Shown here piece by piece: positions 3,361 to 53,855 of a stretch of 64,000 nt of DNA. The notes beneath the pieces were generated by a model. That model did not search any database. It saw only the letters and a program-made list of their open reading frames with translations, and was not told the origin of the DNA. A program made the position numbers and the translations under genes. Source of the stretch: Clostridia bacterium. Its GTDB lineage: Bacteria; Bacillota; Clostridia; UMGS1883. Within the stretch, counting starts at the first letter, position 1; every line of letters starts with the position of its first letter. The stretch spans positions 10,294 to 74,293 of the forward strand of contig JAUNBL010000001.1 of the NCBI GenBank assembly GCA_030527235.1. The letters are read 5' to 3'.

Positions 3361-3380
3361 TCTCCTGCGATAATTCTCTA

Positions 3381-6300: not shown

Positions 6301-6530
6301 CTAATGGCTCTGGTCTTGTTATGAAATTAGGAAGCGGTGTTTGGATTGGAGACTCAAGTATATTAACGGCTGGCGGTAATTATCCGGGGGGTGAGTCGTC
6401 TGCCACAAATATATCCAGTTCATATTCTAACGCAACTGGTATCTTTATAGATTTTAATAATGATATTGTTTATAGATATTACGAGGGTGTACCTTCAGAA
6501 ATCGGTAGCGGCACAGCAAAATTTGGATAA
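3381..6530 (+). CDS. Phage tail protein (Tal / minor structural protein family), apparently 5'-truncated, with a collagen-like segment
   Basis: 1049 aa. The collagen-like G-X-Y run GKDGEKGEQGEQGERGPRGYAGADG lies at nt 5928-6002. By eye the rest resembles the distal two thirds of Firmicute-phage tail-tip proteins. The frame opens only at 3339, and the start is TTG with no RBS. Confidence 0.7.
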   Translation: MYFTRNTTDYERHSVAWDLFEYGQQTLTSLSYPSYSFGVSSANFMSIEDFVSFVRQLELGQKIYLNSDKTILEPIFIGVEIDFENLEALSLQFSDKYSSSDSAFRLVDLLDQSISVGKTVNSNKLTYSSFVDSGASSKVKEFMDSALDVAKNAILSSSGQGVVWDNTGLHLRKYIDTNNTDLGYEDEQIWMINNSIVFTDDNWQTAKMAIGKIIDENIARYPETSDTTFNANKVYYYIDDEGEYQVWEGDAGDWADRPLLYEKDITAYGIVAPYIVGTLIAGQNLVIDTPDGSFRVDSSGVHIDSMKFFITHDGVTEDTALQEELDKLAEEANDIALDLAGAIESIGDLNDKVENTVTTYYQSKIPDNAREGDLWYVIDDEIEDSPEDNDEYEIGKLYRFNGEGWDEITDAAVIEAIEKANNAQTTADGKITSFYQNYIPPTPSFGDLWFNTADSQTVTRPIEVGDNLGGITLTFDTRKIITNESSKDIITGGAGSSGRINHIFASNRGAMGRGVWLTANINGVSKIIYNGSSWLLRAFTVPTTFGVVTEVTKDSAFYGRIYGTFTNNYLTKKWYRYNGTTWVLVEDGDISTVKNNINNITQTLGQYITQEGYLTANKLKGAISTALTTMQNGIGNVVFDEGGLWLLNQATKETATTAVWINERGILFGTGTKGYIEAEDGDDNAWTWTTAIGHDGIIADAMATKTLSAFTINGGSINIGNGRFVVDSNGNLTARSGTFSGTLDAATISGDIKSNTGSDSWILGCGISIGDNPTNSSGNFYVDTDGNVTMKGNINMSEGNITWSSSNTPVQVQYSADGSSWHTTFKTTDYYARYSYDGGTTWTSAIPVKGKDGEKGEQGEQGERGPRGYAGADGSDAEVTFANVNSALGLLFKTYSGGTPTTISDSYIYSPQVKGGEFYGGTFYAGTGTGFSQMSSAGFNVFDENGNKKIGLGCYSGNWSYPYLSLGVGAGTSANGSGLVMKLGSGVWIGDSSILTAGGNYPGGESSATNISSSYSNATGIFIDFNNDIVYRYYEGVPSEIGSGTAKFG

Positions 6531-6535
6531 ATATA

Positions 6536-6561
6536 AAGAGCCCTTGCTACAGGGCTCTTTA
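6536..6561 (+). terminator. Hairpin after the tail gene (weak terminator or processing site)
   Basis: AAAGAGCCC-ttgctaca-GGGCTCTTT. Only a short T tract follows. Confidence 0.35.
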
Positions 6562-6580
6562 ATAATGGAGGTGATTTGAT

Positions 6581-8314: not shown

Positions 8315-8351
8315 GGTTATATCTTATAAATAAGAATACAAGGAGAGTAAT

Positions 8352-8525
8352 ATGAAGAACGAAATGATACAAAAACTTGGTGCGGTTATTAATGCACTAA
8401 ATAATGTTTATGTCAAAGGTGAACAGAACCTTGCTAACCTTAGCGGCAGCATTACTATATTAAAAGAAGTTGCTGAGCAACTTAATATTTACGAGGTTGA
8501 AGAAAAATCAACCAACAAAGAGTAG
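8352..8525 (+). CDS. Small phage protein (57 aa)
   Basis: Own translation gives MKNEMIQKLGAVINALNNVYVKGEQNLANLSGSITILKEVAEQLNIYEVEEKSTNKE. AAGGAGAG lies upstream. It is below the ORF-track cutoff and fills an otherwise empty gap. Confidence 0.5.
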   Translation: MKNEMIQKLGAVINALNNVYVKGEQNLANLSGSITILKEVAEQLNIYEVEEKSTNKE

Positions 8526-8544
8526 AAAGTAAAGAGGTGGTTTA

Positions 8545-10047
8545 ATGGCTTTTAACGGATGCTATTTCAGCTTTGACGGAATACCTTGTACAGAGTATGG
8601 TCTTATGCTATATGACATCGGTACAAAGAGTTCTGACACAACAACAGATTTATCTGTTAATACAGAAATAGTTGAAGATAGGATTGCACGAAGATACACG
8701 CCTTTACATTATGGAACAATAACCAATGAACCGCTTGAATTTACAATGACATTCGGTGCAGATATAAACGCAATTGATAAAGGTGAGTATCTGGACAGAT
8801 GGGATTTGGAAACGATAGCTCGATGGCTAACTGCGCACAATAAATATAAATGGCTTGAGATAACACAGCCTGATATGGAGATGTTTAGATATAAATGTTT
8901 TATCACTGACTTAAAGCATATTGATGTTGCAAATCTTCCTTGGGCTTTTAGCTGTAAAGTTATTTGCGACTCCCCGTTTGCATATCAGTATCCAGAAGTA
9001 TTCAGGTATGTTGTGAATGGCACAACAGAAGTTGAGCTATTAAATAAGAGTTCTTATCGTGGGTTTTATAAACCTAAGATGGTACTATTTTTACCAAGAG
9101 GCGGTTCGGTTGATGTTAGCTTGTTAGAAACTGCATTGACACACGGATATGACGATAAACTTCTTAGAGATATAGACCATTACCCATTATTTGTTTTAGA
9201 CCACGGCGGTGGGTATAACTATTTTTCACTTAAAGAAAGTACAACTAATATCAGGAAGACAATATATGCAAGCCTGCAAGAACAATCAATGAGTCTTGTT
9301 TTCAGTGCCGGTATGGCTCTTGTGGAAACTATGGGTTTAGAAGAACACAATATGACCTTATCGGTAAGCGGAGACATAACAAGGATAATGACGCTTACAA
9401 CACCAAACCTGTCTGCTAAATTAAAGAATCAAATAAAAGCTAATATGACAAATCTATGTGAACTCATAATGAATGCCACAGGAGTTCACTGGCTTGATGG
9501 GTACTTGCACGAATATGACGACAGACTACTTTCAGATATGTATGTAACATATCCGAATATGTCTCTTGTTTCAATGTGCGACAAGGTATATATGAAGTTC
9601 TCGTTTGAACCCGAAGGACACAATATGTCACTTGATGGTAGCGCACCAGACTTTGTAACGACATCAATTATAAAGGATGCGGTTAGGTCTGTAATGCAGT
9701 TAGACTCAGGAACTTCATTTGAATACGAGGTTGTAATAGGATGTAATCCTATGGATACATCATTAAATTCATCTGAGGTATCATTAAATGTTATTGCGTA
9801 TATGTATCCAGAGGCAATCGAGACGAGCTTCTCAAACAGAACGGTACGAGATATACACACCAAGAGTGCTCTTGCTGTTACATCACAGAGTAGGCTCAAC
9901 ACTTCTGTCACAGAAGAAATAGAGATGTATTATGGACTTGGACATTTCGATAGGAATTATCTATATTATTGGGATACATATACTATCGAAGATATGTCGG
10001 CAGAAATTACCGTTAGGTCGCAAGGCGGCTCTGTAGATAATAACTAA
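8545..10047 (+). CDS. Phage tail/baseplate-associated protein (Dit-like N-terminus?)
   Basis: 500 aa with an RBS (AGAGGTGG). The N-terminus MAFNGCYFSFDGIPCTEYGLMLYDIG resembles phage tail-family proteins. The assignment is weak. Confidence 0.45.
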   Translation: MAFNGCYFSFDGIPCTEYGLMLYDIGTKSSDTTTDLSVNTEIVEDRIARRYTPLHYGTITNEPLEFTMTFGADINAIDKGEYLDRWDLETIARWLTAHNKYKWLEITQPDMEMFRYKCFITDLKHIDVANLPWAFSCKVICDSPFAYQYPEVFRYVVNGTTEVELLNKSSYRGFYKPKMVLFLPRGGSVDVSLLETALTHGYDDKLLRDIDHYPLFVLDHGGGYNYFSLKESTTNIRKTIYASLQEQSMSLVFSAGMALVETMGLEEHNMTLSVSGDITRIMTLTTPNLSAKLKNQIKANMTNLCELIMNATGVHWLDGYLHEYDDRLLSDMYVTYPNMSLVSMCDKVYMKFSFEPEGHNMSLDGSAPDFVTTSIIKDAVRSVMQLDSGTSFEYEVVIGCNPMDTSLNSSEVSLNVIAYMYPEAIETSFSNRTVRDIHTKSALAVTSQSRLNTSVTEEIEMYYGLGHFDRNYLYYWDTYTIEDMSAEITVRSQGGSVDNN

Positions 10048-15397: not shown

Positions 15398-15408
15398 GAG
15401 GTTATAAA

Positions 15409-15573
15409 ATGGATAACAAACCTGATGTATGGGCACAGGAAGCTGTAGAATGGGCAGTCGAGAACAAGGTTTTGTTTGGAGATGAGAACGGCAATTATAA
15501 GTTGCATGATACTTGTACGAGACAGGAAATGTTAGTGTTTCTTGACAGAGTATACAATCTGATTAAAGCCTGA
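15409..15573 (+). CDS. Free-standing cell-wall-binding (SLH-like) domain protein, a paralogue of the endolysin C-terminus
   Basis: ATG 15409 with TAGGAGG upstream. MDNKPDVWAQEAVEWAVENKVLFGDENGNYKLHDTCTRQEMLVFLDRVYNLIKA aligns with endolysin residues DNVPDAWAETAVQNAIDNKIIFGDDTGDLKLHKNCTRQEMLVFLYRFYKNII. Confidence 0.6.
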   Translation: MDNKPDVWAQEAVEWAVENKVLFGDENGNYKLHDTCTRQEMLVFLDRVYNLIKA

Positions 15574-24733: not shown

Positions 24734-25205
24734 AATGCGACCTCCTTAAAAATTCTTTAATATCACAAATTAAAGCACTTATAAAATGCGTTAATTTCTA
24801 ATATTAAAGGTAAGCCGTACCCGTCCCGAAAGACGGGTACAACTTATTTTCTTTGTTTTGAAGCAATTTCAGACGATGTTTTGCAAAAACACTCCATAGG
24901 AATTTCACCTCTCCGCCATCCGACCGAGCTGCCCCCATTGCCTGCGACGCTTTTAACGCTCGGACTGTGGCTGGACAGAAGTATCATTGTCCCGGTAAAG
25001 AGTCATCGCCCGCAAAGCTGCCGCTTGCATTGTAACGCTGATATTTCTCGCTCTTATAGCTTTTCATCAAGAAAGAAGGATGAAGTAGAAGCAAAACTAT
25101 CGTCTTGGCGTATCCGTCACTCGGCTCGTCCGTACCGGAATGTATCCGTTTGCCGTTATTCTGCACCGCCGTTATCTTGCGTGCTTTCTTTGTAAAATGA
25201 AAGGG

Positions 25206-25550
25206 TTATGTACTCTGTTTAGACATCGCGTACTTGTTAATTATTGTCGCAATCAGATGTTGCTCGTTTTCGCAAACGGTAGGCATAAGCCTTAACAAAA
25301 GACTTTCCTCGTCTATGGACAAAGGTAAATAAAACTCTTTTCGGTACCCGCTCATTAAAAACGCTCCTCCATCTATTCCTGTTTTGGTACATATAGGTGC
25401 ATATCGGCTCAAAAACAGTATATCCCTGCGAATTGTCCTGTCTGAAACAGAATAATGAAATGCCAAGTCTTTCATAGAGCATTTATTGTTTCGCATAAGG
25501 ATAAAAAGAATTTCAAGTCTTCTTTCAAAAGAAGTTAATTGCCTATCCAA
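25206..25550 (-). CDS. HTH transcriptional regulator (114 aa)
   Basis: N-terminal winged-HTH pattern: RRLEILFILMRNNKCSMKDLAFHYSVSDRTIRRDILFL. Confidence 0.6.
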   Translation of the reverse strand: MDRQLTSFERRLEILFILMRNNKCSMKDLAFHYSVSDRTIRRDILFLSRYAPICTKTGIDGGAFLMSGYRKEFYLPLSIDEESLLLRLMPTVCENEQHLIATIINKYAMSKQST

Positions 25551-26005: not shown

Positions 26006-29000
26006 TTACTTTGTTTCAGCCTTTTTGATTTCGGGCTTTGTGATAATTACCTTCTTATCCTTTTCAACCCATTCGACGCTTGCACCGAGTTCTTCTGAAA
26101 TAAAGCGTATAGGTGTGTAGGTGCGGTCGTTTTCGATAAACGCAGGAGAATCAAGCTTGATTTCCTTGCCGTTTACCTTCGCTGTCGCAGCACCGATGGT
26201 AATAAGTATAGTTACATTCTCATCGGTTTTAAGGTTTTTACCCGTAATGGTTACAAGCTCTTTTTCGCCGTTCCATTCAACCTTTGCGCCAAGATTTTCC
26301 GCTACAAACCTTGCCGGAAGCATTGTGCGGTCTTTTTCGATTTTCGGAGCAACGTCGTTCGATTTTGATTTGCCGAATACCTGTGCGTCTTTTTTGCCGA
26401 TTGTTAAGATAATCTGATTTATCGAATTATCCTTTTCCGTCCATTTTGCATAGAGTGTGAAGCTCTTTGTTACCTTTGCGGAAAAATCGTACTTGGTTTT
26501 GAGTTCCTTATCCGAGTACCAACCGTCAAAATCAAAGTTTTCCTTTGTCGGCGCTGTCGGCTCTTTCATCACTGTATTTCTCGTTACACTCTGGCTTGAC
26601 ACCTTGCTTCCGCCGTTTGTTTCAAATGACACAGTATAGCGGGTTGTTCCGCCGCCACCGCCGCCACCGGAATATGTCCACTGTGCATAAACCGTTGCGT
26701 TTTCGCTAAAGACAGTATCGGTTGTAATCTTTGTTCCGCCGCTTGCCGCAGTATACCATCCCTTGAAGGAATAGCTGCCGCTGCGTGTAGCTGTCGGCAG
26801 AGTAGCGAGCTTCTGACCGGTGGTGGTCATTCCGGAAGCAGAGGGAGTACCGCCGTTGCCATCAAAAGTGATGGTGAACTCAGGAAGAACTGCATTTACC
26901 GTGATAGCCTGCGTAGCTGTCTTGGTCACGCCTCCCTCGGTGTAACTGATTGTTATGCTTGTATCACCGGTTGTCAGTGCTTCGGTAGGTGCAAATGTAT
27001 AGCTTGTTACCGCTTTTGTACTGCTGTCACTGTATGTAGCCGTTACTACCATTCCGGATGTATCGAAGTATTCTCCTGCCGTATAGGTTACCTTTGTAGG
27101 TGCTGTTGTTACTGCGATACTGCTCAATGTTTTGGTTACTGCATTCACCGTGATAGCCTGCGTAGCTGTCTTAGTCACGCCACCCTCGGTGTAACTGATT
27201 GTTATGCTTGCATCACCGGTTGTCAATGCTCCGGTAGGTGTAAATGTATAGCCTGTTACTGCTTTTGTACTACTGTCACTGTAAGTAGCAGTTACCACCA
27301 TTCCGGATGTATTGAAGTATTCTCCTGCCGTATAGGTTACCTTTGTAGGCGCTGTTGTTACTGCAATGCTGCTCAGTGTCTTGGTTGCTGCATTTACCGT
27401 GATAGCCTGCGTAGCTGTCTTAGTCACGCCACCCTCGGTGTAACTGATTGTTATACTTGTATCACCGGTTGTCAGTGCTTCGGTAGGTGCAAATGTATAG
27501 CTTGTTACCGCTTTTGTACTGCTGTCGCTGTAAGTAGCTGTTACTACCATTCCGGATGTATTGAAGTATTCTCCTGCCGTATAGGTTACCTTTGCAGGTG
27601 CCGTTGTTACAGCAATGCTGCTCAGTGTCTTGGGGGCTGTGTACGCCGCAACAGTTACTGTTTGGTTGTCAGATGCCAGAACAGTTCCGCTGTATTTTAT
27701 GCGCACATAATACGTGCCGTTTGCAAGTCCTGTTACTTCTGTACCGCCGCAATCCGTCCAGGTCGAAGTGTCCGACTTTTTATACTGCATTGCGGTGGTC
27801 ACATTTTGAAGCTTACCATCGTTATTTGCGCTTGTGGTACATGCCACGCCGGTTACACCGGTAGGTGTTGCGGCCTTTGTAACATCGATGGTCTGAATAT
27901 CGGAATCCAGCTTGGTGTTGGGATCGGATGCCGGCTTGTAGACCTTAATATCCTTGTCGGCTAATACATTGTATATTGCTTTGTAGTCATAACTGCTTGT
28001 ATTTTCCGTCCAGGTAACACCGCCGTCTACACTGTACTTCATACCTGTTGGCCAATTCATGAGGTTGCCGAAATCGGGGCCTTGGGCGTCAAAGGTAGCG
28101 GTAGGAGTAGCTTCCTTCGTTTTTGCCGTTGCCGGAGTCAATGTTATTGTCGTATTCGCAGTAGGCGTACCGGAAACCGTAATTTGAGTATAACTGTTTC
28201 TCGTCACGGTAATGCCGTTCACTGCCGATACGGAGTAATCCGTCGGGAAATAGTAGCCGTCAGCCGCTGTATATACAGTGTCTGTCATAGCGCCGCTCAA
28301 ACCGCTTTGGTTTGCATTGCCCGAAGCAAGTGTCATATTCGCACCTGCATTAATGGTCACGGTATAGATTGCAGAAGTCGTCCATGTTACTGTAAAATCG
28401 TTGCTGTAACCCCATCCGCCGGGGAACAAAACCTTGAACATAAAGGTCTTTGTAGTCGGCGAACTCTTTGCGGGAATATACATTCCGGAGGGGTATCCTG
28501 ACTTGTCGCCGCTGCCGACCTGGGTCGAATCCTCAAACCGCTGATACGAAATTGCTCCTTCCGGCCACGGAACAGTCACATCAGTCCCCACGGGAACCGT
28601 CTTATTATCAATATGAGGTACTGTGCCCGTCCCGGGCGAGGTTGCCGTCACCGCGCCGATGTCGATGGTAATAGACTTGCTGATGCCTCCCTTATCCGTC
28701 ACCTTGACTATAGCTGTGGTGGCGTCACACACGGAAGCCCGGGTGTAGACCAGCTTGTTTTCAGCGTTGATGGACAGACCGCTGGGCTTTGTGCCCTCAA
28801 ACTCGTATCTGTACTCTCCGCTACCGCCGGTAGCGGTGAGTGCAACGGTTGCCGTGTAGCCGGTGCCTTTCGTACCGGCGGGAATATCATAATCCGCCTT
28901 ATCCTCAAAGGTCAGCGGAGTGATGACCTCATACTTGTAATCTGCATATCCGAGACCGCTTTGGACAGACTGGGTGACAAGGAAGCTGTCATTTTCAAAA

Positions 29001-31207
29001 TACTGTTCGCTTCCCGCGGCATTTGTCCAATCTTCGTCTTCGATCTTACTGTCGCTCTTGGCTGCGTAGTAGGCGGAACCCATCCCATTCGTCAAACTGT
29101 AAGTGTCAGGCATATTCACGGTAATGGCAGCATTGGCGCCTACATTCAGCTTGTTGTCCCCAGAGAAACCGGACACAGACGTCCAGTTGGAAGCGCTTGG
29201 CGAACCCGAGCCGGTGTAAGTCAGGGTGATGGCAGTCTTGCCGTTCAGCGTGATGTTGCCTTTGGAACGAAGACCGTTGGCGAGACCGATGCTGGCGGAG
29301 CTCAGGGTGACGTTCAGCTCCGCGCCCTCCGCCACGGTAATGGGGCCGCCCGCTGAGACCTTTACGGTAGAAACACCGAACACTTGGGCTTCTGTGTCCG
29401 CTGCGGTAACATTCACAGTCACCTTGCCGCTCTGGAAGGTCAGGTTTTCAGCGGCGGGGGCGGATCTGTCCAGCCAAATGCCAAAGACCTGCGTTAAACC
29501 GCTTCCCGCGTTGGTGTTCACAGTCAGGGTACCGTCGCCGATGAACGTCACATTGTCTGCATTTGTAATATTGATACCGACACAGACGTTGCCGACGCCT
29601 TCTTTAGGTGCACTGGTGGTGACGGTGTTGGTTCCCGTCAGCTTGACGGTCACATCATAGGCGTTGGAGCTGCCGATGATGATGGGGCCGCTGTTATAGT
29701 TTTTCAGTTCCAGTATGCCGGTAGCCGGATCATAGTGGGCATTGTAGTCGGTGCTGTCATTGGTGGTGTCCGCACTGCCGTTTTTGTAATACAGCTTATC
29801 CGAGGCAAAACTATGGCCATTGACGGATACGGCACCGGCGTTTGTATATAGCGTGCTGTACGCCACCACGACCTGCTTGGTAGTGGAGTCCGCCTGAAAC
29901 AGCTTGCCGCCGCCTGCATTGGTGCCATCCGGAGTAGAGCGGAAGCTGCCCTCAGTTATCTTTGTGCTGCTGCCCAAGTTGAAATAACCCTGCACGGGGA
30001 AAGCGTAGTCGGTTTCCTCCGAGGATGTGCTTTTTACGGTAACGCTGCCGCCGGAGGTAAGGTTGATTTGATGAACGCGGGTGGAGGAAGTGCTTCCACC
30101 CTCCTGCACAACCAGTGCCTTATAGTCGGTGGAGGTCAGGGACACCTTGGCATCGCCGGTAATCTTCACAAGGCCGGTCTTGTTGGCGCTGTCTTGGTCG
30201 AACAGCCAGAGTGCCGAACTTGCGGTGTTAGCTGTCACCGTTCCGCCGGAGATGGTGACGCCGTTGTTCCAGGAGACGATGCCGAGGCTGTCGCTTGTGG
30301 TAGAGGTGACATTCACCGTGCCGCCGCTGATGACCACATCTGCAAAGGCTGTGTCATGTCCCTTGGTAAAGGCAGCGATGCCATAATAAGCATTCGTCAC
30401 AGTGACAGTGCCGCCGGTGACGGAGATGACGCCATCGGTGTTGCTGCTGGAGCCACGGTTAGCAATTCCGTATACCATGCCGCTCCCGGTGCTGCCGCTG
30501 TCACGTGTAATTGTCACAGTGCCTGCCAGCTCAATGTCGCCGTTATCGGTAACGCTTGCGGTGTATGCTTCGTTATAAATGCCGTACATTCCGTTGCTTC
30601 CGTTGTTGGTTACCTTGACCGCCACCTCGGCGCCGCTATCCACAGTGAGCTTGCCGGTCTTACAGTAGAGGCCGCGGCCATCGGAAGTGCCGGTGATGTT
30701 CGCAGTGAGCTTTCCGCCGGTAACGGATAAGCTGTCGTTGGCGTTGACGCCGTAAACCATTTTACTGCTGTTGGCGTTGATGGTTACCGTGCCGCTTGTC
30801 ATGGTGAAGTGCCTGCACTCAATACCATAAATCAAATTTGATCCGTTCGTAGCGTTGATGGTAAGACTGCCGCTGCCGCTGATATTGAGATTCTGATTGT
30901 TTCCAAGGGCAATACCTTTGGCATTTGTATCATCAACTGTGATGGCGTTGGTTCCCTCAAGCACCAGGTTGAGCGTATTTAACCCGGAGCCTTGGATATA
31001 GCCACCGCTGTAGCCACTCAGGGTCAAGGTCTTGGTGCTTTCTACATAGCTCCAGCCTGTGCCGCTGCTGTCGGCGGTGGAGCCTGTAATGCTGATGCCC
31101 GGCTCTGCCGCAAACGCCGTCAGGCTCATGGCAGGGAGCATTCCCAGCAACATTGCCAGCGCAATAAGCATACTGAGCAGGCTGTTTAGTTTCGTTTTTG
31201 CTTTCAT
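26006..31207 (-). CDS. Giant secreted surface protein: signal peptide, beta-helix-like G/T/N-rich repeats, Ig-like repeats, two Listeria-Bacteroides (Flg_new) repeats, two C-terminal copper-amine-oxidase-N-like wall-binding domains
   Basis: The preferred start is ATG 31207, with AAGGAGG 8 nt upstream: MKAKTKLNSLLSMLIALAMLLGMLPAMSLTAFA. The Flg_new repeats read FTITFDGNGGTPS...FKGWYT and YTVSFETNGGSKV...FDGWYS. The C-terminus reads TIGKKDAQVFGK...MLPARFVAENLGAKVEW and TIGAATAKVNGK...YTPIRFISEELGASVEW. Confidence 0.85.
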   Translation of the reverse strand: MKAKTKLNSLLSMLIALAMLLGMLPAMSLTAFAAEPGISITGSTADSSGTGWSYVESTKTLTLSGYSGGYIQGSGLNTLNLVLEGTNAITVDDTNAKGIALGNNQNLNISGSGSLTINATNGSNLIYGIECRHFTMTSGTVTINANSSKMVYGVNANDSLSVTGGKLTANITGTSDGRGLYCKTGKLTVDSGAEVAVKVTNNGSNGMYGIYNEAYTASVTDNGDIELAGTVTITRDSGSTGSGMVYGIANRGSSSNTDGVISVTGGTVTVTNAYYGIAAFTKGHDTAFADVVISGGTVNVTSTTSDSLGIVSWNNGVTISGGTVTANTASSALWLFDQDSANKTGLVKITGDAKVSLTSTDYKALVVQEGGSTSSTRVHQINLTSGGSVTVKSTSSEETDYAFPVQGYFNLGSSTKITEGSFRSTPDGTNAGGGKLFQADSTTKQVVVAYSTLYTNAGAVSVNGHSFASDKLYYKNGSADTTNDSTDYNAHYDPATGILELKNYNSGPIIIGSSNAYDVTVKLTGTNTVTTSAPKEGVGNVCVGINITNADNVTFIGDGTLTVNTNAGSGLTQVFGIWLDRSAPAAENLTFQSGKVTVNVTAADTEAQVFGVSTVKVSAGGPITVAEGAELNVTLSSASIGLANGLRSKGNITLNGKTAITLTYTGSGSPSASNWTSVSGFSGDNKLNVGANAAITVNMPDTYSLTNGMGSAYYAAKSDSKIEDEDWTNAAGSEQYFENDSFLVTQSVQSGLGYADYKYEVITPLTFEDKADYDIPAGTKGTGYTATVALTATGGSGEYRYEFEGTKPSGLSINAENKLVYTRASVCDATTAIVKVTDKGGISKSITIDIGAVTATSPGTGTVPHIDNKTVPVGTDVTVPWPEGAISYQRFEDSTQVGSGDKSGYPSGMYIPAKSSPTTKTFMFKVLFPGGWGYSNDFTVTWTTSAIYTVTINAGANMTLASGNANQSGLSGAMTDTVYTAADGYYFPTDYSVSAVNGITVTRNSYTQITVSGTPTANTTITLTPATAKTKEATPTATFDAQGPDFGNLMNWPTGMKYSVDGGVTWTENTSSYDYKAIYNVLADKDIKVYKPASDPNTKLDSDIQTIDVTKAATPTGVTGVACTTSANNDGKLQNVTTAMQYKKSDTSTWTDCGGTEVTGLANGTYYVRIKYSGTVLASDNQTVTVAAYTAPKTLSSIAVTTAPAKVTYTAGEYFNTSGMVVTATYSDSSTKAVTSYTFAPTEALTTGDTSITISYTEGGVTKTATQAITVNAATKTLSSIAVTTAPTKVTYTAGEYFNTSGMVVTATYSDSSTKAVTGYTFTPTGALTTGDASITISYTEGGVTKTATQAITVNAVTKTLSSIAVTTAPTKVTYTAGEYFDTSGMVVTATYSDSSTKAVTSYTFAPTEALTTGDTSITISYTEGGVTKTATQAITVNAVLPEFTITFDGNGGTPSASGMTTTGQKLATLPTATRSGSYSFKGWYTAASGGTKITTDTVFSENATVYAQWTYSGGGGGGGTTRYTVSFETNGGSKVSSQSVTRNTVMKEPTAPTKENFDFDGWYSDKELKTKYDFSAKVTKSFTLYAKWTEKDNSINQIILTIGKKDAQVFGKSKSNDVAPKIEKDRTMLPARFVAENLGAKVEWNGEKELVTITGKNLKTDENVTILITIGAATAKVNGKEIKLDSPAFIENDRTYTPIRFISEELGASVEWVEKDKKVIITKPEIKKAETK
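26885..27631 (-). repeat. 3 x 249-bp near-identical in-frame tandem repeats (83-aa Ig-like module)
   Basis: The anchor ACCGTGATAGCCTGCGTAGCTGTCTT recurs at 26898, 27147 and 27396, a period of 249. The unit encodes KTLSSIAVTTAP.KVTYTAGEYF.TSGMVVTATYSDSSTKAVT.YTF...ISYTEGGVTKTATQAITVNA. Confidence 0.9.
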
Positions 31208-31475
31208 AAGCATTTCCTCCTTGTTTCTTTCCGACATTCTGCCGGATAATCTGACCGTGCATATTGTTTTGTCTGCTCACCCACACGGCAAGGAGAGCCT
31301 CCGCCATTCTTCACTTTTGAGGATGGCGCATTGTTCGGTACATTCACATCATATCATCACATCACCCCTGTCCTTCTCGCAGTGCGACGAGCATTGCCTG
31401 CCGGCTCTCTCGCCACATGATGAGTATTCATTCATGCACCTGTTTTACAACATTATCCTAACAGATAAAGTGTAT

Positions 31476-31540
31476 AAAAGATATTCTCCAATGGATAATT
31501 TTTGAGCTTTTTCTGCAATATTATCATTGGATAATGTGCA
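31476..31540 (-). promoter_or_regulatory. Conserved operator/promoter block, copy A (upstream of the 1743-aa gene)
   Basis: About 57 of 66 positions are identical to 46096-46162. It contains the palindrome-like sites 31483-31499 and 31520-31535. Confidence 0.6.
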
Positions 31541-31588
31541 AAATATACAAATAATTAACATTGTATATAGACATTTTCGCCTAAAATG

Positions 31589-43091: not shown

Positions 43092-45632
43092 TTATTTATA
43101 TCTGCATGCAAAACCAAGCGGTTTTATAGCAGACAAACCGTCCCAAATCATAATCTTTGCATATGCAGCAGAGTTAAAGTAGGTTTCAAAATTCTTAATC
43201 CGAGTTGAATTGGTAAGATTAAACATTTGGATTACTGTCATGCTGTTTTCGCCCTTCGCAAGATTATATCCGTTATTGATAAAATTGCTTATCATTCGTC
43301 CGTTTTTATTATAGAACGCAACTGCAAAGCATACGGTTTTTGCCTCAGGCGCTGTGACGGTAAAATCTACATTATTATCTTTTTTAACTTTAAATCTCGG
43401 CTCCGTTGCGGTGAACGGTGTTCTGACAATCAGTGTAGTGCTTGTATTGGTAGTGCCGCTGATATATACTCCATATTCCGTGCCGTTTATTTTCATTTTG
43501 TTATTGCCGAAAATATAATTTTCCTCTGTCTTTATGGGAACATAAAGATAATAGGTCGTCCCCTCTGTCGCAACAGTGCCTGCAGGGAGCTTGTTTGCAA
43601 CACCGTACGCTTCTGTTGGACACCAATAAAGCGTGCTTACATAGTAGTTAGCTGAGACTGTTGTAAAGTCGTCCTTCTGCGCAAGAGTGCTGCCGCCTTC
43701 GGGCGGTTCAAAGAAGATTTCTGCGTTGTTTAATACTCTTACATAAACAATCAGCTTGCTTGAACTTACACGAACCGTATCGGTCATCTGCTGATTGTTC
43801 ACCTGCAAATCAAGGTTATCCGCGGTAAAAAATCCATTCAATGTTATTTTTGCAATATAGTTTTTGCTCATATCAAATTTATCGGTTTCATTCATTGCGT
43901 TTGCGGCCGTATATGTATCGCCCTTGCACCATGAAACAGAGTCAACTGAGAAGCTGTCTTTATTAGGCGTATATACTACATCCGCGGGCGTTTCGCACTC
44001 ATACATATTCGTCATTACAAGCCTTGCCGCCTTTATTTTCTCACTTTCCCACACGGCATATGCCGTAGTTGTATCAGATACATTTACTTGCTCTCCTACA
44101 CCGTACAGCTTGCCGTCCACTCTCCAGCCCACAAAACTGTCGTCGTCTTTGGTGTAGGTACATTCCGGTAGGATAAATTGCCCGTCAGCAGTCAAAAGTT
44201 TTGACATACTTCCCGAGCCGCCATTTGAGTTAAAATGAAGAGCGCACAACGGTTCCGGCAGATCAACCGCGAAAGTATTTGAGCTGACGACATAGTGCGG
44301 TGTACATTCTCTTCCGTTAATCGTTACCGGCGGCCACGGATATTTCAATTCAAACTCCGAGCCTGGTATTGACTTAAGCGTTATTTTAAGCCGATATTCG
44401 TATCCTTTCGTAAGCTTCGAATTGGTTTTGTCAACCCATTCCGTTTCACCTATCTTTCTGCCCTGCCACTGATAGGTGTCTATAACCGCTCCTTCCGAGG
44501 GAATGTATACAACCGGTTGGAATACACCGTAGTAATAATTAGGCACAGAAAGTTCTATTTCCGGTATCGGCGCTTTGCTGGTGCCCTTGACATGATCGCA
44601 ATATTTACAGACGTCATTGACGTAGCTATGTCTTTCATAGCCGCGGAAAGCGCCGCAGCCCTTGCAGGTTTTTCTATGGTGAGTTGCGCCGTAATATATG
44701 GTATCGCTGCCGCTGGAGGTTTCGCCGTATTCATATGCCTCCTCATAGCTTGTGTTTACATGCGTTACGGTAACGGTTGCTTTATCGCTGTACACCTCTC
44801 CTGCACGGTTATATACCTTGCAGTAATATTCCACACTGCCCTGCCATGAAAAGCTGCTGTCTGTGGTAAGCTGTGCGCCGCTGCCAAGGCATACGGGGTC
44901 CTTGCCTTCAACCTGATAGTACCAAAGATACTTAAGCCCTTCCCCGGTTGCCTCGATGCTAAGTGCTACGCTTTGATTGCATTTTTTCGTAACATTTTGG
45001 GGCTGGCTTGTAATCACCGGCAGCGCATATGTTGTTTTATATCCGCAGTCGGTACACACGCCGTCCTTAAAGTAGTGTTCGTATTTAAAGCTTTCAACAT
45101 TAAATATATAGGGGCAACCCGTGACAGCGCATTTATATCCGTGATAATCCTCGTCGATGGCACCGTAGGAATTCATATCCGCTTCATGCACATGGGAACC
45201 GTCGTCAATGGCATAGCCCCTCATAATTTGGATAACTACAACATCATCCTCGTCCGCAAAAACACTATAATCAACATTTTTCGTGAGCACCTCGCCGTTT
45301 ACGGTGACCGTAACGCTTTCGGAAAACTCATATCCGTCCTTCGGCGCAATCACAAAGAGGTAACCGTATATTCCGGCGGAGGCAAAGCTTGTTATAATGC
45401 TTTCTTTTTCCAAATCACCCCAATAATGAATATCCGTGCCGTCGTAATTCTTTACCGTATAATTTGCTCCCGAGGGAATCGACAGATATTTGCAGCTGCC
45501 GTTTGCCACGGGAATAATATCTCCCGTAAGAGTAACTGTCGTAATTTCTGTTGCCGCAAACGCTGTATTAGGCAGAATCGCTAACAATATGCAGAGTGTC
45601 AAAACTGCCGACAAAATTTTTTTGCTTTTCAT
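43092..45632 (-). CDS. Large secreted protein with His/Cys modules and a Flg_new repeat
   Basis: 846 aa. Signal peptide: ILSAVLTLCILLAILPNTAFA. Modules include HVHEAD...YKCAVTGCPY, GVCTDCGYK and THHRKTCKGCG...CKYCDH. Flg_new repeat: LHFNSNGGSGS...FVGWRV. The C-terminal tail is shared with the 1083-aa protein. Confidence 0.7.
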   Translation of the reverse strand: MKSKKILSAVLTLCILLAILPNTAFAATEITTVTLTGDIIPVANGSCKYLSIPSGANYTVKNYDGTDIHYWGDLEKESIITSFASAGIYGYLFVIAPKDGYEFSESVTVTVNGEVLTKNVDYSVFADEDDVVVIQIMRGYAIDDGSHVHEADMNSYGAIDEDYHGYKCAVTGCPYIFNVESFKYEHYFKDGVCTDCGYKTTYALPVITSQPQNVTKKCNQSVALSIEATGEGLKYLWYYQVEGKDPVCLGSGAQLTTDSSFSWQGSVEYYCKVYNRAGEVYSDKATVTVTHVNTSYEEAYEYGETSSGSDTIYYGATHHRKTCKGCGAFRGYERHSYVNDVCKYCDHVKGTSKAPIPEIELSVPNYYYGVFQPVVYIPSEGAVIDTYQWQGRKIGETEWVDKTNSKLTKGYEYRLKITLKSIPGSEFELKYPWPPVTINGRECTPHYVVSSNTFAVDLPEPLCALHFNSNGGSGSMSKLLTADGQFILPECTYTKDDDSFVGWRVDGKLYGVGEQVNVSDTTTAYAVWESEKIKAARLVMTNMYECETPADVVYTPNKDSFSVDSVSWCKGDTYTAANAMNETDKFDMSKNYIAKITLNGFFTADNLDLQVNNQQMTDTVRVSSSKLIVYVRVLNNAEIFFEPPEGGSTLAQKDDFTTVSANYYVSTLYWCPTEAYGVANKLPAGTVATEGTTYYLYVPIKTEENYIFGNNKMKINGTEYGVYISGTTNTSTTLIVRTPFTATEPRFKVKKDNNVDFTVTAPEAKTVCFAVAFYNKNGRMISNFINNGYNLAKGENSMTVIQMFNLTNSTRIKNFETYFNSAAYAKIMIWDGLSAIKPLGFACRYK

Positions 45633-45660: not shown

Positions 45661-46041
45661 TCAAAAAATCAAACTGACAGTAGTTTCTGCTATAACCGGT
45701 TTCCCCGATTCGTGCAGCCTTTCTGCACAGTTTTTGCACATCTCGATTTCATCGCATATCAAAAAGCACCGGTCACATATCAATCCATGGCATATCGGGC
45801 AAATGCTAAAATGATTTATTGCATCATCCAAAACGGCATTCCGCGCATTAATCCACTCTCTTCTGTAAAGTGCATCATAAATCACTTTTTTGTTTTTATC
45901 CGATACTCTGCTGCCAGCCTGCGAAAATGGTATTGGCTTACTGTACCACCATGTTCCGCAGGATGAACATAAGAACTTAAAGCAAAACTCATCTTCTGTC
46001 GAACAATCTTTCATGTACTTTATCAATTCGTCTTTCATCAT
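45661..46041 (-). CDS. Cys-rich small protein (126 aa)
   Basis: CSSCG...CPICHGLICDRC...CKNCAE. It is the first gene downstream of operator block B. Confidence 0.5.
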   Translation of the reverse strand: MMKDELIKYMKDCSTEDEFCFKFLCSSCGTWWYSKPIPFSQAGSRVSDKNKKVIYDALYRREWINARNAVLDDAINHFSICPICHGLICDRCFLICDEIEMCKNCAERLHESGKPVIAETTVSLIF

Positions 46042-46095
46042 AGCGATTTACTCCTTTCAACTGTATTATGATTTTATTGTAGCTGAAAAAAAGAA

Positions 46096-46162
46096 AAAAA
46101 GATATTATCTATTGGATACTTTTGGGGCTTTTTCTTAAATATTATCCATTGGATAATGTGCA
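46096..46162 (-). promoter_or_regulatory. Conserved operator/promoter block, copy B
   Basis: Perfect 17-bp palindrome ATTATCCA-T-TGGATAAT at 46141-46157. A degenerate second site lies at 46104-46120. Homologous to 31476-31540. Confidence 0.6.
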
Positions 46163-46213
46163 CATTTAACAATATAATACACCTTTATTTGTTAAAAGCG
46201 CCCAAATAGTTTG

Positions 46214-46247
46214 CAAAAAAAGAACCGACCGAATAATCAGTCAGTTC
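46214..46247 (-). terminator. Rho-independent terminator of the LuxR-type gene
   Basis: On the minus strand: GAACTGAC-N10-GTCGGTTC (one mismatch), followed by T7-8. Confidence 0.6.
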
Positions 46248-46262: not shown

Positions 46263-47864
46263 TTAAATTTTTGTACTACGGCGAAGCTCGTCAAGACGTC
46301 CGCATCGTTTGAGCAAATCTATATAAAGCATTAGTTCATCTCTGGATGAAACCTCTAATTTTTCATAAATACTTCTGTTATGTCTTCTTACTGTACTCAT
46401 ACTGATATACGCGAGATTGGGTATTTCCATAATCTGATATCCTTCAATATAATATTCTAAAATATTGTATTCTGCATTTGTCAAAGTTTTTGCACGTTCG
46501 ATAAAGTTATCAAAAATTTCCTGTATCCCCTCCGGTATACCGGTGTTTTCAGATATTGTGTTTTGTTGCTGCGTATGCAGGAAATTCATAAGTTCGTCTA
46601 TTTCAGACAGTCCGGTTTTAGATTCATGCGTTAAATTCCCGTTTTGAATTGCCTCAAGCTGTTTTGCAATGGGCTGCACATATTTTCGCGAGAGAAATAC
46701 CGACATAATTATCATAATTAGTAATAATGCGGCAAATACTGTAATATAAATTACTTTCCTTTTAACGGCATACTCACGGAAATTCGACGCCGGCAAAAGA
46801 ACCGAAACCGTCCACTCTGTATCGTTTAACGGAGAAGACGATATTGAAATTTCCTTTGAAAGTCCAACATACTTTCTTTCATCTGATGTATAGTAGTTAA
46901 AATTACCCGATGGCTTTATACAAAAAATTTGCTCGGAAAATTTACCTCTGTTATCAGCACCGCATAGCCCCTTTGACAAACATAAATTTCCATTTTCGTT
47001 CGGAGACAATGCCGTAACAATTGTTCCAAACTTACTTTCAGAGGACGGATGAGCAAGCCTGAAATACAGTTCACTTATTTCAACACCGCATATACCGTAA
47101 AATTCTCCTTGGCTACCGATAATAGGAACAACAAGCAGCATTGCTTTTTCCCATGTGTCCGTAAGCGATTCCTTTTTCGCCCATAAATACGAATTTGCTG
47201 CGCGCATCGGAGAACTTTGCTGCATTTCCATGTAATAAGGAAACTTTTTTATATTAAACTCCATATTCCATCGATTATGCAGTTCAAGCTTGTTTTTTCT
47301 TGCAACCTCTTTCATACCGCGAAACAGTGCTGTTTCCGAATTGACAGGATTGCTGTCATTGACGCTCGTGCGGCGAAGATATAGTCCACAGCGTGAAAAT
47401 TCGGAGTCCTTTGCCGCAGTATTGACCGTCACATCCAAAACAACATAAGCTCCGCTGCCTTCGGATGATTCCAAAGCTGTATTAAGCAAATTATACATTG
47501 ATTGCTGCAAATCTCGGATTTGCATAGGATCATTATTTAAGCTCTCAAACGACCGATTATTTTTTTTCAGTAAATATTCTATTTCCGTGCTTATTTTACT
47601 TGAAAGCTTAATGCCTTGAGCATTGGTACGGTCAAACTGCTGCATAATTTTAGACGAAGAATTTTCAAGCGTCATTGACAGACATTGGTTTAAATGCTGC
47701 TTTGAAAACGAAAATACATCCGTCACAGAGCAAATTATAAGCAAAATGCAGATAATAGCCGAAACGATGGACAAAAAATAATACATTAGTTTTTTCTGCA
47801 TACTTGTGCTGCGATTCTTCATCTGACGGTATATCATTTTTAAATTTTCCAAGTATTTTTTCAT
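46263..47864 (-). CDS. Membrane-anchored one-component regulator: TM, extracytoplasmic sensor domain, TM, LuxR/GerE-type HTH
   Basis: 533 aa. TM1: YFLSIVSAIICILLIICSV. TM2: VIYITVFAALLLIMIIMSVFL. C-terminal HTH: NAEYNILEYYIEGYQIMEIPNLAYISMSTVRRHNRSIYEKLEV. Confidence 0.7.
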   Translation of the reverse strand: MKKYLENLKMIYRQMKNRSTSMQKKLMYYFLSIVSAIICILLIICSVTDVFSFSKQHLNQCLSMTLENSSSKIMQQFDRTNAQGIKLSSKISTEIEYLLKKNNRSFESLNNDPMQIRDLQQSMYNLLNTALESSEGSGAYVVLDVTVNTAAKDSEFSRCGLYLRRTSVNDSNPVNSETALFRGMKEVARKNKLELHNRWNMEFNIKKFPYYMEMQQSSPMRAANSYLWAKKESLTDTWEKAMLLVVPIIGSQGEFYGICGVEISELYFRLAHPSSESKFGTIVTALSPNENGNLCLSKGLCGADNRGKFSEQIFCIKPSGNFNYYTSDERKYVGLSKEISISSSPLNDTEWTVSVLLPASNFREYAVKRKVIYITVFAALLLIMIIMSVFLSRKYVQPIAKQLEAIQNGNLTHESKTGLSEIDELMNFLHTQQQNTISENTGIPEGIQEIFDNFIERAKTLTNAEYNILEYYIEGYQIMEIPNLAYISMSTVRRHNRSIYEKLEVSSRDELMLYIDLLKRCGRLDELRRSTKI

Positions 47865-47897: not shown

Positions 47898-49250
47898 CTA
47901 TTGAAGCTCTGATTGCAGCCTTTCAAAGTATTTGCCAGATATGTCATATACAGCCGAATCAGGATTTCCTCCCGCATCCACTATATCTATATATTCTTGT
48001 CGGGCATCTGAAAGCAGCCGCCGAACGGTGACGGTAAATGCTGTTTCAGAATCCAGATAACTGTCAAAGCGCGGAGGATATACAAATTCATAATCAGGAT
48101 TAATATCCTGTATTGTTTTATATAAATCTTTGTATTTCGGATCCGTAAGCTGCTCCGTTTCCTTGATTAAATACTTATCGTAAGCCTCGTAGCATACAGG
48201 GACATAGCCGAGAGAAGTCACGAATTTCGTGTTTTGCTCCGGAGCTGTCAGCCATTTGATAAACGTGCAGGCTGCCTTTTCCCGTTCCGGTGTCGATTTT
48301 ACCGTACAAAATCCGCTGCCTCTTTGCATAACCATCTTTTTTCCATTTTCAAAGTTCGGATAGGGCAAGGAAATAATTTCAATTTCCTCCGAGGTATTGT
48401 CCTCGTATGTAACAATATTTTCATAATACAAGACGCTTGCCGAAGAAGCAAGAGTAGCAATGGCGTCACCTGTACGCAGCGCCTCTGTGGCATAGCCCTC
48501 TCCCAGCCACACACCGCCTTTTATTGCAGCCGGCGCAAGCACATCCCAGGCTGTTTGATACGATTGGCAAAAGGAAAATTGTTCGTCACGAAAGAAATCC
48601 TCGCCAAGTGCCTGCACACCTACTTGAAAATAATGAAAGGGGTAATCGTTTGCCAAAAACGCCTTACCTCCACTCCACTCCGCGTATAATGACGCCGCTT
48701 TGTACAGTCCTTCCCATGTAGCAAGGTCATCTAATTTTGCTCCCGTTTCCTTTGCAAAACGATCAAACAAGGTTTTATTGATAAACAGAAGCTCCGTGGA
48801 CTTAGCAACCGGGAAAATGAGCAGTCGCTTGTCAAAGGTTCCCTCATCCAAAAACTCTTTTATGTAGCCTTCAAGATCCGCATCGCTAAAATAATCTCTA
48901 TAATCTACCAACATATCCGAATCCTGCATTGCGGACACAGTTTTGGGGTAACAGTTGAAAATATCCGGAAGTTCAGGTGCGCCCGGTTCATGATTTACAG
49001 CCGCCAAAACACCCTCATGTATTTTGTTGCTGTTTGATACAGACGTTACTGTAATTTGAATTCCTTCTTTTTGTCCGACCGTGCTGTTAAATTCATCAAT
49101 TAATTCATTAATGGGCGATGCCACCTGTTCTCCGTACACATGCCAAAGTGTCAGTTGTATGGGTTCTTTGTTTTTGCTTACACCGCATCCCGCCATTGAA
49201 GTAATCAGGCATATTCCGCATAAAGCGCATAGTATTTTTTTGTGTTTCAT
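47898..49250 (-). CDS. Orphan extracellular solute-binding lipoprotein (ABC SBP family 1-like)
   Basis: 450 aa with lipobox ITSMAGCG and a general SBP pattern. The window contains no permease or ATPase genes. Confidence 0.65.
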   Translation of the reverse strand: MKHKKILCALCGICLITSMAGCGVSKNKEPIQLTLWHVYGEQVASPINELIDEFNSTVGQKEGIQITVTSVSNSNKIHEGVLAAVNHEPGAPELPDIFNCYPKTVSAMQDSDMLVDYRDYFSDADLEGYIKEFLDEGTFDKRLLIFPVAKSTELLFINKTLFDRFAKETGAKLDDLATWEGLYKAASLYAEWSGGKAFLANDYPFHYFQVGVQALGEDFFRDEQFSFCQSYQTAWDVLAPAAIKGGVWLGEGYATEALRTGDAIATLASSASVLYYENIVTYEDNTSEEIEIISLPYPNFENGKKMVMQRGSGFCTVKSTPEREKAACTFIKWLTAPEQNTKFVTSLGYVPVCYEAYDKYLIKETEQLTDPKYKDLYKTIQDINPDYEFVYPPRFDSYLDSETAFTVTVRRLLSDARQEYIDIVDAGGNPDSAVYDISGKYFERLQSELQ

Positions 49251-52666: not shown

Positions 52667-53050
52667 TTACAACGTATCAACAACGGCTGATAAATACGCC
52701 GCTGAAACAGAGCTGTAAATAAAATTATCAATCAGACCGTCTTTTTTTGCCTGAAGCACACGCCGTGCCAGCGTCTTTTCAGCATTTTCATCGACAATCA
52801 GGACAATTTTACACTTCGGACTGTAACACTTTACTTCATCCCTTATTTTGAGCCGTTCTTCCAGCATCCACGGAGTATATCCGGTTACTTCGCAAAGAAG
52901 CGCATACGGCTTGAAAAGATTACAAAGCTCTGCCGTTTTGTCCGGGCTTTCCGACATTCGTACATCAAAATCGGAATCTGCTCTTTTTAAGGCTTGCACA
53001 ATTGCATCAGCAAAAAGATAGTTTTGCATATCTACAACAATCCGCTGCAT
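52667..53050 (-). CDS. Stand-alone pseudo-receiver (REC-like) protein
   Basis: 127 aa with a CheY-like alternation. At the expected phospho-acceptor position the sequence is LLCEV (Glu rather than Asp). Confidence 0.45.
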   Translation of the reverse strand: MQRIVVDMQNYLFADAIVQALKRADSDFDVRMSESPDKTAELCNLFKPYALLCEVTGYTPWMLEERLKIRDEVKCYSPKCKIVLIVDENAEKTLARRVLQAKKDGLIDNFIYSSVSAAYLSAVVDTL

Positions 53051-53231: not shown

Positions 53232-53855
53232 TTAAAACCCGTTGACAATAACTCGTTTGCTCATCACCATAGCCGCAAGCTTGGTCTTGGAAGTGAAGCC
53301 TGTTTTAGACAGCATATTTCCGATATGCTTTTTCACACAATCCGATGTTACGCCGAGCTGTTCGCCCATCTCTTTATAAGTCATTCCGTCCACCAACAAA
53401 CGAAGGACATTTATTTCCGCTTCACTGAATTCATAAACAGATGCATTTCCGATTTTTACTTCCGGAGTTCTGTCAGGGTAGACAGATTCTCCGTTTACAG
53501 TCATTTCCACAACTTTCATCAGTTCCACACGGCTTATATCCTTATACCAAAGGCTGTCTGCACCGACTTCTTTTGCTCTTTTCAAATATCCGACATCCAG
53601 CATGGATGTTACAATGATAACCTTAATTCTCGGAAATTGTGCTTTTATCGCTTTTGTAGCTTCAAAGCCGCTTTCATCGTTTTCCGTGCAGACATCCATC
53701 AGCACAAGATCTACCTGCGTAGTTTTGCAGAAGGCTTTAGCAAGGCTTGCCCATGCTATAGAGCCGGCAAGCTTATACCCCTCCGTCTGATTGATGTAGT
53801 TTTCCATTGTTTCGCGCATCATACGCTGATCCTCGACTATCAATACATTTATCAT
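53232..53855 (-). CDS. NarL/LuxR-family response regulator
   Basis: 207 aa. REC domain: MINVLIVEDQ...DLVLMDV...IIVTS. HTH: SEAEINVLRLLVDGMTYKEMGEQLGVTSDCVKKHIGNMLSK. Confidence 0.85.
   Translation of the reverse strand: MINVLIVEDQRMMRETMENYINQTEGYKLAGSIAWASLAKAFCKTTQVDLVLMDVCTENDESGFEATKAIKAQFPRIKVIIVTSMLDVGYLKRAKEVGADSLWYKDISRVELMKVVEMTVNGESVYPDRTPEVKIGNASVYEFSEAEINVLRLLVDGMTYKEMGEQLGVTSDCVKKHIGNMLSKTGFTSKTKLAAMVMSKRVIVNGF

Follow-up and report, generated by a model that had tools for sequence, protein, structure and literature searches.

Two copies of a paired-palindrome block in a Clostridia contig probably act as activator-dependent promoters for a membrane-tethered LuxR-type regulator

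Why do two transcription units lying 14.6 kb apart in the genome of a Clostridia bacterium share an intergenic block built around palindromes, and which protein reads it? The question is raised by a 64,000-nucleotide stretch of contig JAUNBL010000001.1 (hereafter the window, meaning this stretch at its full length), in which the genes surrounding the two blocks are all read from the minus strand. An earlier note on this DNA had proposed a control block with two dimer sites, shared by two co-regulated operons under a dimeric helix-turn-helix (HTH) protein encoded nearby, and had named three candidate proteins. Phylogenetic footprinting supports the proposal and favours one of the candidates: each block is probably an activator-dependent, class-II-like promoter of the sigma-A type for the adjacent membrane-tethered regulator encoded at 46263-47864, duplicated before the gene of a 1743-amino-acid (aa) protein. 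This reading is built on the observed repeat, the geometry of its sites, the conservation of that geometry across lineages and its co-variation with the recognition helix of the regulator.

The two copies are referred to here as block B, which precedes the gene of a 126-aa protein, and block A, which precedes the 1743-aa gene. The global alignment of 46096-46162 with 31476-31540 has 67 columns, 57 of them identical, and a single internal gap of 1 nt, close to the ~57 of 66 identities reported initially. With the block A intergenic region as query, BLASTN against the whole window returned a single other copy, 46058-46178 (121 nt, 76% identity, E = 1.1e-17), the next-best matches having E values of at least 0.018. 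Homology extends ~20-40 nt beyond the 65-bp core at both ends and takes in the -10 element. The claim that the DNA around the core is unrelated was thus slightly too strict, since homology runs to ~120 nt; the window holds no further copy. The parts of the two blocks are as follows, with negative positions given relative to the putative transcription start:

46058-46178, minus strand: promoter block B, the full homologous stretch, between the terminator of the solute-binding protein (SBP)/LuxR operon and the 126-aa gene; it aligns with the orthologous intergenic regions
46141-46157, no strand: block B site 1, candidate distal operator, a perfect ATTATCCA-N-TGGATAAT, centred at about -80
46121-46140, minus strand: block B inter-site spacer, with two A-tracts, ATTTAAGAAAAAGCCCCAAA on the gene strand
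46104-46120, no strand: block B site 2, candidate proximal operator, AGTATCCAATAGATAAT on the gene strand, centred at about -43
46076-46081, minus strand: block B candidate -10 hexamer TACAAT, 31 nt after the site-2 centre
46222-46247, minus strand: intrinsic-terminator-like hairpin and T-run, ending the SBP/LuxR transcription unit; kept in close relatives
31437-31555, minus strand: promoter block A, upstream of the 1743-aa gene; present also in L011 and L027
31520-31535, no strand: block A site 1, candidate distal operator, with a 1-nt deletion in this strain, ATTATCCAAT-GATAAT on the gene strand
31483-31499, no strand: block A site 2, candidate proximal operator, ATTATCCATTGGAGAAT on the gene strand, one mismatch to the palindrome
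31455-31460, minus strand: block A candidate -10 hexamer TAGGAT, 31 nt after the site-2 centre
31238-31454, minus strand: putative untranslated leader of ~217 nt, between the block A -10 hexamer and the ATG of the 1743-aa gene

The architecture described in the earlier note holds in its essentials. At 46141-46157, ATTATCCATTGGATAAT forms an 8-1-8 palindrome without mismatch, its counterpart in copy A lacks one C (as read directly in the sequence), a second, degenerate site lies 37 bp away centre to centre in block B and 36.5 bp away in block A, and block B is preceded by a terminator-like hairpin and T-run (46247-46222, minus strand). The three sites other than the perfect one carry 1-2 mismatches, and the dyad is kept across lineages even where the sequence differs. 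Allowing up to two mismatches, the palindrome matches the window three times (at 46141, 46104 and 31483), in every case within blocks A and B, against 0.05 matches expected, and none of 100 shuffled sequences reached three. At three mismatches the 15-mer motif was found nine times against 4.3 expected, that is, with no excess over chance, and we therefore regard only the four sites inside the two blocks as real. A scan of the window and the orthologous loci with a position weight matrix (PWM) found no further strong site, and a two-mismatch site at 15402-15416 was rejected, being below the PWM cut-off and without a partner site. The same scan found no strong site upstream of the SBP and LuxR genes, hence no evidence of autoregulation through this motif.

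Two ~120-nt copies with inverted repeats, 14.6 kb apart in a cluster that also harbours an IS110 element, might be taken for a mobile or selfish repeat resembling a miniature inverted-repeat transposable element, or for a recent local duplication without regulatory meaning. We give this explanation almost no credence. Only two copies of the block occur in the 64 kb; across 185,579 species genomes (one per GTDB species), a stringent 22-nt site-2 pattern was found at eight loci, three of them orthologous to A or B and five due to chance; and viral contigs contained no match to the pattern. Multicopy spread at unrelated loci, which the earlier note had named as evidence against its reading, was thus not seen in any of these three collections. 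Moreover, position, orientation and distance to the -10 hexamer and to the gene start are kept where the regulator is only 37-40% identical (40% in L032, 37% in L034). Nor is block A a recent copy of the block B in the window: its site 2 and spacer are closer to the B blocks of other lineages. It is best read as a paralogous copy of the same promoter, placed before the 1743-aa surface protein gene.

The conservation of the block was assessed in 11 independent lineages, reached through homologues of the small 126-aa protein or of the 533-aa regulator with identities of 37-97%. The exact 126-aa protein was found on 20 metagenome contigs, one of them from a pig-gut metagenome, and its homologues with 60-89% identity were found in Lachnospirales and other Clostridia metagenome-assembled genomes (MAGs). 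A scan of metagenomes with the regulator alignment yielded one short, uninformative contig, and neither a tblastn search of plasmids nor a scan of viral DNA yielded matches. The order of genes is the same in 11 of the 11 lineages, namely SBP, transmembrane LuxR-type (TM-LuxR) regulator, an intergenic region of 170-400 nt and the gene for the small Cys-rich protein. The intergenic region contains two inverted repeats in 10 lineages, the eleventh (L036) being not interpretable, and centre-to-centre distances of 36-38 bp were measured in 14 of 14 promoters. A hexamer resembling a -10 element (TACAAT, TAAAAT, TATAAT, TAGAAT or TAGGAT) begins exactly 31 nt past the centre of site 2 in 10 of the 11 lineages, with any other hexamer offset shared by at most three. 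Outside the sites, their spacing and the -10 elements, the flanks show no conservation. This conserved geometry reads as the footprint of a protein-dependent, functional promoter and not as that of a mobile repeat.

Two observations concern the distribution of the module itself. The L036 contig contains two divergently placed SBP/TM-LuxR pairs (1599-4600 and 5588-8572), showing that one genome can hold paralogous copies of the module; no operators of the usual geometry were recognised for the pair examined. In one distant lineage (L032 and L033, positions 1-5300), the module, consisting of the SBP, TM-LuxR, small protein, histidine kinase (HK) and response regulator (RR) genes, adjoins genes for ParB, a type IV secretion system coupling protein, a relaxase and AbiE, so that a conjugative element may carry this copy.

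Both blocks have the same anatomy. Reading 5' to 3' on the gene strand, TTGTwA and ~10 nt are followed by site 1 (ATTATCCAATGGATAAT), a 20-nt stretch of ATATT, A-tract, GC and A-tract, site 2 (kTATCCAwTrGAkAAT), ATATCTTTT with a further 13 nt, and TAnnAT. Site 1 of block B is identical or nearly so in L001, L012, L019, L022, L024 and L032, whereas site 2 has the strain variants AGTATCCAATGGATAAT (L003, L012) and AGTATCTAATGGATAAT (L001). The A/T-tract positions of the spacer are kept in all lineages, with T-tracts at those positions in L034. At the usual -35 position of block B (17-nt spacing) the hexamer is TATCTT, which does not match the consensus, and a sigma-70 promoter scan of both blocks found no -35/-10 pair on the gene strand. 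The only good sigma-70 matches, which are on the opposite strand and use TGGATA of the palindrome as -35, were treated as a by-product of the motif. If the candidate -10 is taken as -12 to -7, site 2 would be centred near -43 and site 1 near -80. Each block is accordingly best read as a complete activator-type promoter without a -35 match, and as more than a pair of operators. The core of block A (31476-31540) follows an 80-aa open reading frame (ORF), and ~240 nt separate it from the downstream start codon, an ATG, of the 1743-aa gene. Since L027, a MAG contig 97% identical and from another strain of the same species, has the perfect palindrome at block A site 1, the 1-nt deletion in the window is a strain polymorphism.

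Further features of the promoter regions deserve mention. Nearly all lineages have kept the motif TTGT(A/T) ahead of site 1, its distance from the site being constant (46159-46185 and 31537-31560 in the window; ~23 nt upstream of the site-1 centre on the gene strand), 20-22 nt from any -10-like hexamer, which is too far for a -35 role. The ~217-nt leader of the 1743-aa gene is unusually long and has more G+C than the promoter block; a 116-aa ORF that overlaps it (30957-31307) is probably spurious.

Palindromes upstream of genes can also be hairpins in RNA or DNA (an attenuator, a processing site or a terminator), and the half-site TTATCCA resembles the DnaA box TTATCCACA. Each site can form a short hairpin, and the changes in site 2 of L015 keep the pairing, G-U on the sense strand included; the half-site has 7 of the 9 bases of a DnaA box, and one chance match to the site pattern (L021) is an apparent DnaA-box cluster. 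Neither identity is at all likely in our view. The block RNA folds no better than shuffled sequences (z = -1.1), nor does the leader (z = -1.0), the two sites share sequence beyond mere pairing, and they are located upstream of the conserved -10. We also rejected a riboswitch or other RNA element, with fold z-scores not significant and no Rfam match in either block or in the 217-nt leader. To our knowledge, the specificity of DnaA is invariant across bacteria; the operator sequence, unlike DnaA specificity, changes with the LuxR helix. DnaA boxes were rejected as well, the half-sites being TTATCCAAT or TTATCCATT (two mismatches to the 9-mer) in some lineages and ATCACCC or ATACTAC in others.

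Which protein, then, binds the sites? GerE/LuxR-family proteins bind inverted repeats of 16-20 bp as dimers, and the genes to be considered are these:

46263-47864, minus strand: proposed cognate regulator, 533 aa, with transmembrane (TM) segment 1 at ~29-49, an extracytoplasmic region with a dCache fold, TM2 at ~371-391, a linker and a GerE/LuxR HTH at 460-514
47898-49250, minus strand: gene for a family-1 extracellular SBP (Pfam SBP_bac_8/1), directly upstream of the regulator gene
53232-53855, minus strand: NarL-type RR with a GerE HTH, a rival binder that the evidence disfavours

The GerE HTH is the only Pfam or NCBIfam domain of the 533-aa protein, which has no phosphorelay domain, and a Pfam sequence search gave no match for its ectodomain. 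Hydropathy identifies two hydrophobic segments (29-49 and 371-391). In an AlphaFold2 (AF2) model built from a 73-sequence alignment (mean predicted local distance difference test score, pLDDT, 83.5), long helices at 22-48 and 359-408 flank the ectodomain, which at ~50-360 matches the dCache ligand-binding domains of Tlp1, Tlp3, PctA, TlpQ and KinD (Foldseek E = 4e-7 to 3e-4). The two TM segments, the predicted dCache-fold ectodomain and the lone GerE HTH thus mark the protein, according to the model, as a membrane-tethered one-component regulator with the order TM-dCache-TM-GerE. The family comprises 216 homologues at E ≤ 1e-5, from Lachnospirales, Oscillospiraceae and Anaerovoracaceae, all generically named. 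The SBP and LuxR genes are adjacent in every locus compared, with no ABC permease genes in the neighbourhoods; this adjacency suggests that the SBP is likely the sensing partner of the regulator.

The operators follow the recognition helix of this regulator. The helix STVR[RK]HNRSIYEKL pairs with the operator ATTATCCAaTGGATAAT / TATCCAnTGGATA in the window, L012, L015, L019, L029, L030 and L032, and in L032 both helix and operator are unchanged, although the regulator is only 40% identical overall. Three lineages have another helix, and in each of them both half-sites of both sites are altered alike:

L037: helix TVRTHNRNIYKKL; operators ATCATCCAAAGGATGAT / ATCATCCTTTGGATAAT
L018: helix TVKTHNKSIYKKL; operators ATCATCCCAAGGGTGAT / ATCACCCTTAGGGTAAT
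L034: helix TVKKHNTNINRKL; operators TATACTACTTTGTAGTATA / TACTACTCTGTAGCA; regulator 37% identical

The NarL-type RR is the obvious competitor: it likewise carries a GerE HTH, the window, L012, L015, L019 and L032 all have an HK-RR pair linked to the module, and the sites might be operators of this RR, which the neighbouring HisKA_7TM kinase would control, with the TM-LuxR protein acting elsewhere. Its behaviour across lineages makes this unlikely. The helix of the RR differs among the window, L015, L019 and L032 (VKKHIGN, LKSHIKS, VKTYIHG and VKYHKMN), which have the same operator; the HTH of the RR is 35-45% identical among lineages with one operator, compared with 75-99% for that of the TM-LuxR protein. 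In L034 the two-site promoter occurs although the 5-7 kb to each side of it encode neither an HK nor an RR, and the order of the HK and RR genes relative to the block varies. From this behaviour and from the co-variation of helix and operator, which is a correlation across four helix/operator classes, we assign the sites to the 533-aa protein as their putative binder. The remaining candidate of the earlier note, the HTH protein at 25206-25550 (114 aa, DeoR-like), is not in the conserved neighbourhood of any locus compared, which leaves the regulator at 46263-47864, invariant in its helix where the operator is the same and changed where the operator is changed, as the favoured one.

The mechanism outlined next is inferred as regards contact between protein and DNA, the point where transcription begins, the sign of the regulation (positive and not negative) and what the SBP does. 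Cytoplasmic GerE-domain dimers would bind the two 17-bp inverted repeats (consensus ATTATCCA-N-TGGATAAT) 37 bp apart, the proximal site lying ~43 bp upstream of the putative start, in the usual -35 position, and the distal site, usually the better match, near -80, with phased A-tracts between them. Occupancy of the proximal site, aided by the distal one, would recruit RNA polymerase in a class-II, lux-box-like manner. Block B would thereby turn on an operon encoding the small Cys-rich protein first and secreted and cell-envelope proteins after it, and block A would make the 1743-aa surface protein respond to that signal too. The signal is probably a ligand outside the cell, perceived either by the dCache ectodomain itself or by way of the orphan SBP, which is co-transcribed with the regulator.

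The same sites could be occupied to a different end: the TM-LuxR protein might bind and repress or roadblock transcription, or two different GerE proteins might bind, one at each site. Palindromic operators that overlap a -35 region can also repress, and two GerE proteins are encoded in most loci. Furthermore, site 2 of L015 and L029 (AGTGTTCGwTGGAyAsT) has diverged from site 1 while the LuxR helix is unchanged. We nevertheless judge these variants rather improbable: TATCTT at 17-nt spacing is not a recognisable -35 that a bound protein could occlude, class-II activators classically occupy sites centred near -43, and most lineages have one half-site in both sites, with joint change in L018, L037 and L034.

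Activation by the TM-LuxR protein has several points to contend with. The divergent site 2 of L015 and L029 implies that the two sites may not be equivalent, and a repressor or dual role of the regulator is possible. The -10 assignment, and with it the putative -43 and -80 positions, is drawn from conservation only. A spacing of 37 bp places two dimers on opposite faces of straight DNA, and the 1-nt deletion in block A site 1 of the window should shift the register of the half-sites. L036 (helix TVRRHNANIYQKL) gave no convincing site pair with the 37/31 geometry. The lineages are, in addition, not independent in the phylogenetic sense, and they represent only four helix/operator classes. Finally, the regulator, although tethered to the membrane, would have to reach a promoter that lies 14.6 kb away from the gene encoding it, which is plausible.

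What the promoters control differs in part from the earlier description of both units as surface-protein operons. The first target, the one that is conserved, is the small Cys-rich protein encoded after block B and is no surface protein. The genes concerned are:

45661-46041, minus strand: 126-aa Cys-rich protein, first gene after block B, the conserved promoter target in all lineages
43092-45632, minus strand: 846-aa secreted protein, second gene after block B, with a signal peptide and weak immunoglobulin-like matches; variable or absent in other lineages
26006-31237, minus strand: 1743-aa surface protein downstream of block A, with Big_3, Flg_new and Cu_amine_oxidN1 domains

The 126-aa protein has nine invariant cysteines (C25, C28, C81, C84, C89, C92, C96, C102 and C105) and is likely zinc-binding. 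Its family, annotated throughout as hypothetical, counts more than 1,100 clusters of sequences from gut Clostridia and has members in Butyricicoccus pullicaecorum, Anaerotignum lactatifermentans and Intestinimonas massiliensis, and it matched no Pfam or NCBIfam entry; the AF2 model (pLDDT 91) has no significant fold match in the PDB. Autoregulation of the BlaI/BlaR kind by this protein was considered and rejected, as it has no HTH and no Pfam or NCBIfam match and its Cys-rich fold has no PDB match. The 127-aa gene at 52667-53050 is unrelated to it. After the 846-aa gene, the window encodes Zn-ribbon, TPM-domain, DUF4428, LRR_5/SLH, SPFH, HEAT and SLH proteins, a set that varies by lineage. In L037 a Flg_new protein is encoded directly next within the operon, whereas in the species of the window the Flg_new protein, of 1743 aa, is under its own promoter copy, block A.

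Some features of the neighbourhood stand apart from its regulation. Three tandem 249-nt repeats (26890-27648, 92% identical) within the 1743-aa gene are repeated domain units. An ORF for an IS110-family transposase (39035-40198, plus strand; DEDD_Tnp_IS110 and Transposase_20) lies between the DUF4428 and LRR_5/SLH genes of the regulated cluster; the insertion is flanked by perfect 125-nt direct repeats (38628-38752 and 40318-40442), a duplication unusual for IS110 elements, and is missing in strains L001 and L002. The sole Rfam match of the window at the gathering threshold, a pemK RNA (RF02913, 62.5 bits), is located at 24894-24990 on the minus strand, near the DeoR-like HTH gene.

The locus offers a concrete candidate regulator-operator pair for the membrane-tethered LuxR-type sensors of gut Clostridia, a large and uncharacterised family. 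The literature searched contained no description of a TM-dCache-TM-GerE regulator family, which is weak evidence of absence. Operator variants tracking changes in the recognition helix would provide a natural basis for specificity swaps. The targets, large surface and S-layer-associated proteins, suggest control of commensal surface remodelling by an extracellular cue. We would also offer, tentatively and as less likely true than false, a broader reading in which the block is the readout of a module widespread in gut Clostridia, the orphan SBP gating the dCache-LuxR regulator and operators on opposite DNA faces switching on a zinc-binding mini-protein together with lineage-specific surface proteins. 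On this reading the Cys-rich mini-protein may act back on the regulator as its partner in a feedback loop, and helix/operator pairs such as RR or RK with ATTATCC and RT or KT with ATCATCC would constitute a readable specificity code for the family.

Sites with their centre near -42.5 are those from which LuxR and TraR activate, and the blocks resemble the lux and tra boxes in several respects: a GerE-type HTH dimer would sit on an inverted repeat (17 bp here, 18-20 bp there) centred ~42-43 bp upstream of the start and replacing the -35, a position deduced here from the conserved -10, and the regulator gene adjoins the target promoter. The differences are that each promoter here has a pair of sites, spaced 37 bp, in place of a single one, that the host belongs to the Gram-positive gut Clostridia, and that the regulator, with no domain for binding acyl-homoserine lactones, appears to be an integral membrane protein with an extracytoplasmic dCache region. 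It belongs to the broad class of transmembrane transcription regulators (census in PMC10269533), of which ToxR, TcpP and CadC share with it a membrane-tethered DNA-binding domain, often a co-encoded extracytoplasmic partner and action on nearby promoters; in these proteins, however, an N-terminal winged helix of the OmpR type is paired with direct repeats, in contrast to the C-terminal GerE HTH and inverted repeats here. dCache receptors often partner with SBPs (PMC8050422), and in the SBP-stimulated systems LuxP/LuxQ, HptA/HptS, NspS/MbaA and CBP/ChiS (PMC8050422) an orphan SBP gene adjoins that of a dCache membrane receptor, as here, where the interaction of SBP and receptor is suggested by gene adjacency. 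The outputs reviewed there are kinases, chemoreceptors, cyclic di-GMP enzymes and Ser/Thr kinases, with direct HTH output not listed (PMC8050422).

The closest parallels are SusR and BguR of the Bacteroidota, the only phylum for which transmembrane one-component regulators with GerE output have so far been described; according to a preprint, SusR was the only membrane-spanning one before BguR (bioRxiv 10.64898/2026.01.10.698779). In these proteins, too, a single polypeptide without phosphorelay domains links a sensor outside the cytoplasm, by way of a membrane span, to a C-terminal GerE HTH inside it, and the operon next to the regulator gene is controlled by way of a conserved motif in the intergenic DNA beside that gene. 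The cis-element of the window is of a conventional kind, with paired palindromic operators in a promoter of the activator type. Its regulator, by comparison with SusR and BguR, differs in sensor fold (dCache, as opposed to the beta-propeller/Y_Y_Y of BguR), in topology (two TM helices versus a signal peptide and one TM helix), in its pairing with an SBP, in phylum and in its targets, which are Cys-rich and surface proteins and not polysaccharide utilisation loci, with no SusC/D or carbohydrate-active enzyme genes in the neighbourhood.

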